DNA of 64,000 nt from Octopus vulgaris (taxonomy: Eukaryota), in contig OX597839.1 in NCBI GenBank assembly GCA_951406725.2, positions 7,750,001 through 7,814,000 of the forward strand, written 5' to 3'. The notes under the pieces are model-generated. The model was not told the origin of the DNA, ran no database searches, and worked only from the letters and a program-made list of their open reading frames with translations. The stretch's first letter is position 1; each line of letters opens with the position of its first letter. The position numbers and the translations under genes are program-made. Shown here one piece after another: positions 56,665-57,103 of the stretch.

Positions 56665-56668
<4 letters not shown>

Positions 56669-57097
56669 AATACTGAATTTCTAAATCTCTCGTAGAGACA
56701 TGTACGGCGGTGGGGCGATAGAATGGTTGTATACTGTCAATCTAACACGAACGTGACAGTAGGGGGTACACCACCGCCGTTTAGCCCTAGGAAGCATCGA
56801 CGCCTCCTGATGGCTTTGACACATTTTTCCTGTGTCCTTATATACATTTACGAAGGGGAGACAAACACCCCCGGCAGCCTGGGCTGCATCTAGGGACACG
56901 TGTTTCAGGATGATTGTCCTTCGTCGGCCTAGACTAGCAGACACCGGTTAGCTGGTGATATTTGTCTCCCCTTCGTAAATGTATATAAGTACACAGGAAA
57001 AATGTGTCAAAGCCATCAGGAGGCGTCGATGCTTCCTAGGGCTAAACAGCGGTGATGTACCCCCCCCTACTGTCACGTTAAATTGACAGTATACAAC

Positions 57098-57103
<6 letters not shown>
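56665..57103 (-). mobile_element. Fold-back HHR-containing element between microsatellite tracts
   Basis: Arms 56720-56865 and 56961-57103 are inverted repeats, with an HHR in the spacer. Flanks are (AT)n and (CT)n(AT)n. Confidence 0.75.
56884..56940 (-). ncRNA. Type I hammerhead ribozyme (core CCGACGA)
   Basis: Minus strand reads CUGC-UAG-UCUAGG-CCGACGA-AGGA-CAAUCA-UCCU-GAAA-CACGUG-UC-CCUAGA-U-GCAG. All three stems pair; stem III is the palindrome ACACGUGU. Confidence 0.85.

Follow-up and report, generated by a model that had tools for sequence, protein, structure and literature searches.

An insertion at positions 56666-57103 of the window, the 64,000-nucleotide stretch of the Octopus vulgaris genome that we analyzed, is best read as a dispersed copy of a ~362-bp hammerhead repeat family that is homologous to a 360-bp array in the same window, with inverted arms that are likely a by-product of a Penelope-like RT/endonuclease acting in trans. 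We put the probability of this reading at roughly 0.8. The insertion is genuine, yet as the footprint of a Penelope-style retrozyme insertion it is ordinary, and it is the architecture of the copies that suggests mobilization of the family by Penelope enzymes. The inverted-copy-plus-tail layout and the link between retrozymes and Penelope are already in print; distinctive here are a fixed U4C core, strict pairing of ends, a probable promoter and an intruding LINE. The features of the locus, with strand, are as follows.

56666..57103, minus strand: whole insertion, a 5′-truncated retrozyme unit plus a head-to-head inverted partial copy
56666..56717, minus strand: 52-bp tail outside the left arm, between the fixed 3′ end sites at unit positions 1 and 53
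56666..56968, minus strand: direct (tailed) cDNA arm, unit positions 1 to ~297-305, from alignment to the family majority sequence
56720..56865, plus strand: left inverted-repeat arm, the duplicated portion of the direct copy
56885..56939, minus strand: type I hammerhead motif with U4C core, predicted cut after C17 at 56895
56946..56959, minus strand: predicted transcription start (+1 near 56959, placed from family copies) and LINE target site of the family
56961..56968, no strand assigned: 8-nt microhomology TTTGTCTC at the inversion junction, from the unit's own extended stem I hairpin
56961..57103, plus strand: right arm, inverted tail-less cDNA, unit positions ~55-200
60260..61146, plus strand: homologous 360-bp tandem retrozyme family, hammerhead cores at 60531 and 60891, used as comparison locus

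The original prediction described inverted arms of ~145 bp around a minus-strand hammerhead, and these can be read directly in the sequence. Alignment of the arms at 56720-56865 and 56961-57103 (143-146 bp) revealed few substitutions, one 6-bp indel and one 3-bp indel. That description needs one correction, as the element is asymmetric, with a one-sided 52-bp tail at 56666-56717. Microsatellites ((TA)n and (CT)n(TA)n runs) border the insertion, and its own target duplication is illegible within them. We found no RT plus GIY-YIG frame in 56666-57103 or between tandem units; thus, this is not an autonomous Penelope-like element. A common short repeat flanks the insertion on the right and also forms a palindromic insertion around (TA)n at 52223-52424, which weakly matches a retrozyme 3′ profile (E 3e-5). 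Elsewhere in the window are open frames at 50776-51330 and 61828-62223, which we take to resemble a LINE C-terminal piece and the start of a Tc1-like transposase, respectively.

The window hammerhead has its three helices in type I order and an NUH triplet. Stem I is 6 bp long (minus-strand UCUAGG at 56933-56928 with CCUAGA at 56894-56889), with a UAG bulge at 56936-56934 and a bulged U at 56888. The core consists of CCGACGA (56927-56921) and GAAA (56906-56903), stem II is AGGA-CAAUCA-UCCU (56920-56907, loop II CAAUCA), and stem III is the 8-nt palindrome ACACGUGU, followed by GUC with C17 at 56895. Comparison with the core C3 U4 G5 A6 N7 G8 A9 plus GAAA revealed that only U4 differs (it is C). 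The original prediction that the stems differ from those of the ribozyme at 60531 (there placed at 60510), with the unpaired parts alike, was correct for every counterpart listed. The UAG bulge is a minority variant, as the family mostly carries UAC, like the 60531 ribozyme (80 UAC and 14 UAG among 106 instances, with overlapping loci kept in).

When we predicted folding of the whole fold-back, stems I and II had pair probabilities of 0.8-1.0. Stem III was not predicted in the monomer (P ~0), and the active fold lay 4.1 kcal/mol above the minimum free energy. The 8-nt palindrome has a predicted self-duplex of -10.3 kcal/mol. The 96-nt ribozyme region was no more stable than its shuffles (z -0.5). 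Rfam reported no hammerhead at the locus at E≤10, for which the C in position 4 of the core is the probable reason; run over the whole 64-kb window, its output was swamped by microsatellite matches, and a repeat search across the whole window was uninformative. U4C is a natural hammerhead variant with lowered activity in vitro, yet sufficient activity in a viroid (PMC3088659, consulted in part, as were the other papers cited here). By analogy, U4C probably weakens the ribozyme of the window family. The window copy contains no LINE, and its upstream ATCAGT motif has been cut off; it lacks this putative promoter motif and is probably inert.

The family consists of hundreds of copies, often in tandem. 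Using the 438-bp insertion as a query against the 2.8-Gb genome gave 2286 first-look candidates, 40 of which were scored. The further members expected by the original prediction were recovered in number, as a 30-mer from the arm had 411 exact matches genome-wide and a 35-nt core pattern had 135, all intact cores, whereas its reversed control had none. Of 100 cores among the matches listed, 98 carry CCGA, with C at position 4. The basic unit is 361-364 bp, non-coding, and contains one hammerhead, and it forms direct tandems (as in L012, L027, L122 and L130). Its order is ATCAGT, ~57 nt, the start region, the hammerhead, ~180 nt, end site 53, the 52-nt tail and end site 1. Copies occur singly, in tandem or head to head, lie in (TA)n or AT-rich DNA, and carry 7-14-bp duplications. 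Contigs of four runs (RNA type guessed) contain family pieces, in which neither expression of the window copy nor cleavage can be read; a loose end in these contigs, considered as a partner element, proved to be single-copy flank.

A structural match to the 360-bp ribozyme had been proposed. The likeness is real, but it reflects common descent rather than structural matching alone, since the ~362-bp and 360-bp units align collinearly from end to end (score 103, compared with 32 ± 5.5 and at most 50 for shuffles). The ~362-bp unit did not align with the 549-bp unit at 39 kb. That unit belongs to a second hammerhead family in the window (38648-39625; cores at 39377 on the plus strand and 39007 on the minus strand), with a CCGAUGA core and a long stem II. 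It is a young, non-coding tandem unit with copies 98-99% identical, also found inverted and in (TA)n, and has no detectable homology to the 360-bp families. A stretch at 39190-39340 was considered as a Penelope endonuclease end and rejected, as it lies within this 549-bp non-coding tandem unit.

We also searched with a family-blind hammerhead pattern, which had 1763 matches compared with 39 for its control. This pattern required no pairing, and its listed matches still had a paired stem II and a palindromic stem III. They included several further families, with stem III palindromes CCAUGG, CACGUG, CAUAUG and CUGCAG; one has the normal CUGA. Covariation was judged by pair counts in place of a covariance model or R-scape. 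Among 13 representative sequences, 14 of 16 stem pairs were altered on both sides (score 0.905 compared with 0.343 ± 0.035); as these sequences were prefiltered for pairing and are mutually related, the percentage paired is circular and carries no significance test. Because stems covary across families while loops stay, the source elements kept the ribozyme fold. The original prediction had taken such covarying stems and conserved loops to indicate selection on RNA structure; the covariation holds across families, but selection cannot be read from one inserted copy.

Two further observations concern weakened cores. CCGA-core hammerheads occur in unrelated repeats near or in Penelope elements (L065, L109, L077, L097 and L099), revealing that U4C recurs genome-wide. 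A related retrozyme family has the core UUGACGA, with U3 opposite G8, in all copies seen (L365, L366, L369, L376, L377, L381 and L382), and this is likely another weakened core.

To characterize ends and junctions, we used two samples. The first 100 of the 411 arm 30-mer matches merged into 78 loci, of which two LINE arrays (L262 and L263) were removed, leaving 76; the second sample comprised 61 further loci from the core pattern, hence selected for having a core. Head-to-head inversions were present in 53 of 76 and 34 of 61 loci (87 of 137), and the other 50 of 137 were single-orientation. Of 129 outer ends, 117 coincided with unit position 1 or 53. Where both ends were resolved, every inversion paired 1 with 53 (42/42 and 27/27, together 69/69), with no 1/1 or 53/53 pairs among the 69; one outer end was unresolved in 18 of 87. 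Single-orientation copies also end at 53. Exact duplications of at least 7 nt flanked 24 of 33 non-TA loci (one an (ATT)n run; six loci were excluded beforehand), and (TA)n was present on a flank in 41 of 76 loci.

Inner junctions differed at nearly every locus, as did arm lengths, with 50 different pairs among the 53 inversions of the first sample. Of 69 junctions, 37 had an overlap of at least 2 nt, 14 were flush and 18 contained inserts. The tail-less arm, which ends at 53, reached further in 35 of 69 inversions and the tailed arm, which ends at 1, in 23; three tailed arms stopped exactly at 52. Since the longer arm is sometimes tail-less and sometimes tailed, neither of them can in all cases have been copied from the other. 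Arms of the same locus differed at 2.5 of 82 sites compared with 4.2 between loci (38 loci, permutation p 0.0005), and a subfamily site was identical between the two arms in 37 of 38 loci. This similarity could partly come from homogenization after insertion. Inversions ran past the cut site in 45 of 69 cases and were longer than one unit in 27 of 69 (the second sample having been picked by core). The 5′ ends did not accumulate at the cut site (position 231 had 0 of 129, positions 228-229 three) or, among the same 129 ends, at the predicted transcription start. A cluster of 5′ truncations at unit positions 267-270, the 5′ strand of stem I, contained 9 of 129 ends; a TA step there could pair with the target.

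Some copies have been invaded by a LINE. Cassettes of ~1.7 kb with a CCHC-containing ORF1 adjoin the unit in 7 of 139 loci and are often stacked. They are bounded by a 12-14-bp repeat of unit sequence ~30 nt before the core, and the LINE within the unit is flanked by 14-19-bp duplications of unit sequence. Other cassette subfamilies lie in other targets, as 11 of the 30 best loci had no unit of the window family. Full LINEs (~5.5 kb) have an APE-RT-zf-RVT ORF2, intact in L369 and L376, and the same insertion habit. From this domain order, we take the LINE to be L1/Tx1-type; no named Tx1 reference was among its protein matches, of which the nearest with a name came from Argonauta, its ORF1 CCHC knuckle matched zf-CCHC at E 0.008 (below the curated cut-off), and the cassette ORF1 matched no protein of 248-791 aa at E≤0.001. 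Of 20 LINEs retrieved, 10 ended 37-44 nt upstream of a hammerhead-like core (in L383, that of a window-family unit), one upstream of a mutated core, two ahead of another cassette and two at the first base of U2 snRNA (L378, G000:C3:20826500-20836000; L379, C23:43308500-43318000), with five unresolved. In L378 and L379, as in L380, the LINE 5′ leader begins with 14 nt resembling the retrozyme start, as if the donor copy had been transcribed from a retrozyme promoter. We considered whether the ORF1 cassettes form a polycistronic Terminon-like element and rejected this, given full LINEs with target duplications and U2 insertions. Many ORF1-only cassettes genome-wide retain intact ~450-aa frames (half-L1-like). 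In L262 (G000:C1:194340500-194349000), retrozyme units alternate with ORF1-only cassettes and internally deleted LINEs at a period of 4021 bp, and one ORF1-only subfamily (L321-L327 and L330) forms 1.8-kb tandems and seemingly targets the ORF1 region of a different LINE.

The LINE target lies at a fixed distance from a motif shared with snRNA genes. ATCAGT is 57 nt before the LINE target site in full ~362-bp units, 57-59 nt before 20 of 20 U1 loci, and (once as ATTAGT) 57-61 nt before 24 of the 26 U2 loci without a preceding LINE end; the remaining 4 of 30 U2 matches follow a LINE end. The chance per locus is ~0.002, with the proviso that U1 and U2 copies derive from few promoter lineages and hence are not independent. 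The motif was also 57-60 nt before 12 of 16 located LINE 5′ junctions, with one at 50 nt and three behind another LINE. As the proximal sequence element of snRNA genes has a spacing of ~60 bp (PMC4494074), we infer that the family carries a putative snRNA-type promoter and that the LINE inserts at its start.

Could the LINE itself have mobilized the repeat, with the unit serving as its SINE-like tail? LINE or ORF1-only cassettes do adjoin the unit in some loci and can travel with it (L263). However, the LINE is nested in the unit between stretches of duplicated unit sequence, stacks at a single site and targets U2 genes as well, all of which mark it as an intruder. Moreover, ends at two internal sites plus a tail are typical of Penelope and not of L1, making this explanation highly improbable. 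A dedicated fold-back or MITE-like element, with the arms as terminal inverted repeats and the ribozyme in the spacer by design, is less credible still and already largely refuted. Several top matches to the whole 438 bp do share a comparable geometry, in some cases with the join in the same native hairpin, but these were chosen for likeness to the query. Against such an element, hardly any loci share a junction, 50 of 137 lack the inversion, the 52-bp tail means that the arms are not terminal, duplications vary between 7 and 14 bp, and direct tandem units are common. Thus, the fold-back, originally thought to define the family, is not a family trait; the basic unit is the ~362-bp direct repeat.

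We also considered whether the second arm arises when the first cDNA, or an antisense template, folds back and primes itself, followed by endonuclease trimming, as proposed for Penelope palindromes (PMC3846280). Self-priming accounts for the variants common to both arms and for short homology at 37 of 69 junctions, and the junction of the window copy lies within the native hairpin. Yet the tail-less arm holds sequence absent from the tailed arm in 35 of 69 inversions, the two arms barely overlap or do not overlap at all in L285, L132, L207 and L212, and single copies end at 53 too. We therefore regard self-priming as unlikely.

The reading that we prefer, insertion by a Penelope-like enzyme in trans, can be set out as a series of steps. 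Source units would be transcribed from the snRNA-type promoter, given ATCAGT at the same distance before U1 and U2 genes. Their ribozyme would be weak, with a U4C core and a stem III stable only as a dimer. As cDNAs extend through the cut site and beyond one unit, the template would be uncut read-through RNA or a re-ligated circle, and the data fit both. The enzyme would nick both strands ~10-12 bp apart; one cDNA would begin at site 1 and the other at site 53, on RNA of the same source, and both would halt early and then join by short homology. Positions 1 and 53 may thus be reverse-transcription start sites, by analogy with a Penelope enzyme shown in vitro to cleave and extend both strands, with two start sites that bound the tail (Frangieh et al., 2024; PMC11167929). 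The anole Penelope element also uses unprocessed RNA (PMC11167929). In the window copy, the join would have occurred at the 8 nt TTTGTCTC, which are common to both strands of the unit's extended stem I hairpin. Since this junction falls within the unit's own long hairpin, the ribozyme came to lie at the apex of a 145-bp fold-back.

Candidate enzymes exist, as the genome contains RT plus GIY-YIG elements, some with intact 781-aa frames. In one such family, a CCGAAGA hammerhead lies in the end repeat, and the layout includes an inverted copy, a tail and flanking (TA)n. In 50 GIY-YIG and 30 Naiad-like loci (80 of thousands of candidates), blastn and profile searches detected no coding partner sharing sequence with the unit and returned only separate retrozyme insertions. 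A young Penelope-like family with intact 781-aa RT plus GIY-YIG frames (L091-L096) has an end repeat rich in CCAAT and TGACGT boxes, in which a scan detected no hammerhead.

Craig et al. (PMC8557442) call a step of Penelope integration unresolved. For this step, the pairing rule, one tailed and one tail-less end from the same source, is strict and countable and can be tested in the existing in vitro system. Through its structure, the fold-back links canonical-hammerhead retrozymes with Penelope integration chemistry, a link for which the literature consulted here relies on phylogeny and co-occurrence. If the promoter reading is true, the family shows a LINE choosing snRNA-type start sites. A natural U4C ribozyme kept across diverged families also offers a test of why retroelements keep weak ribozymes. 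In a search short of supplements, most subscription journals and Repbase, no published account turned up of the strict 1/53 pairing or of a LINE placed at the starts of retrozymes or U2. Taken jointly, the data allow a tentative, still somewhat doubtful proposal of a three-tier parasite system. In it, each retrozyme would bring along an snRNA-type promoter of its own, and its hammerhead would be deliberately weakened (U4C, dimer-dependent) to let uncut or circular RNA serve as the template. Insertion would fall to a Penelope enzyme dimer, with obligate priming of both ends from two fixed sites; this would explain how Penelope inversions and tails originate. A LINE lineage would find snRNA-type starts (U2 and retrozymes), steal the promoter and set its 3′ end by the downstream ribozyme.

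The hammerhead traits of the window family are, by comparison, standard for canonical metazoan type I hammerheads. In the Schistosoma and newt type, these have a 6-bp helix I, a 4-bp helix II, a short palindromic helix III suiting dimers, and loop contact nucleotides (PMC4209133); the window hammerhead is like them in the lengths of all three helices and in the contact nucleotides, and differs in having C at position 4 as the family state. Metazoan non-LTR retrozymes are non-coding repeats of 150-450 bp, solo or in tandem, in which each unit has a single canonical type I hammerhead and duplications are long (Cervera and de la Pena, 2020, PMC7229834; Li et al., 2026, 10.64898/2026.07.22.740005). 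Mussel units are 350-390 bp, and the same two reports propose that metazoan retrozymes are non-autonomous Penelope derivatives. The window family resembles them in its non-coding unit of this size, its single hammerhead per unit, its tandem copies, and its dispersed copies with duplications >4 bp (24 of 33 non-TA loci here). It differs from the published descriptions in its fixed U4C core. Circular RNA and cleavage were demonstrated for published retrozymes; for the window family, cleavage is a prediction and a circle a candidate template. The main texts of both reports make no mention of head-to-head inversions with a tail or of the promoter motif; "inverted" does not occur in that of PMC7229834 and occurs only in a reference title in the preprint.

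The Penelope layout comprises an inverted 5′-truncated copy with a one-sided tail, partial tandems, (TA)n or AT-rich targets and ~10-bp duplications (Craig et al., 2021, PMC8557442; Arkhipova et al., 2013, PMC3846280). The window family shares all of these, and two internal start sites, with endonuclease-bearing Penelope-like insertions. It differs in having no ORF, in a tail of 52 bp compared with 30-40, and in a canonical rather than a minimal hammerhead, and the strict one-of-each end pairing that we counted distinguishes it from Penelope descriptions as far as those sources were drawn on. For the promoter, the nearest parallel is newt satellite 2, likewise a hammerhead repeat and reported to contain an internal promoter of the snRNA type (Coats et al., 1994, as cited in PMC2220036); here, a shared motif and its spacing suggest the promoter. 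Target-specific Tx1-clade LINEs include Tx1L in Tx1D, Keno in U2, and Tx1-Mar (PMC4494074, PMC4640811). The octopus LINE is like these in being APE-type, in using one site of another repeat or U2, and in stacking. Unlike them, as described in the portions of those papers used here, it inserts both at U2 +1 and just 5′ of the hammerheads of several retrozyme families, 57-60 nt behind a common motif.
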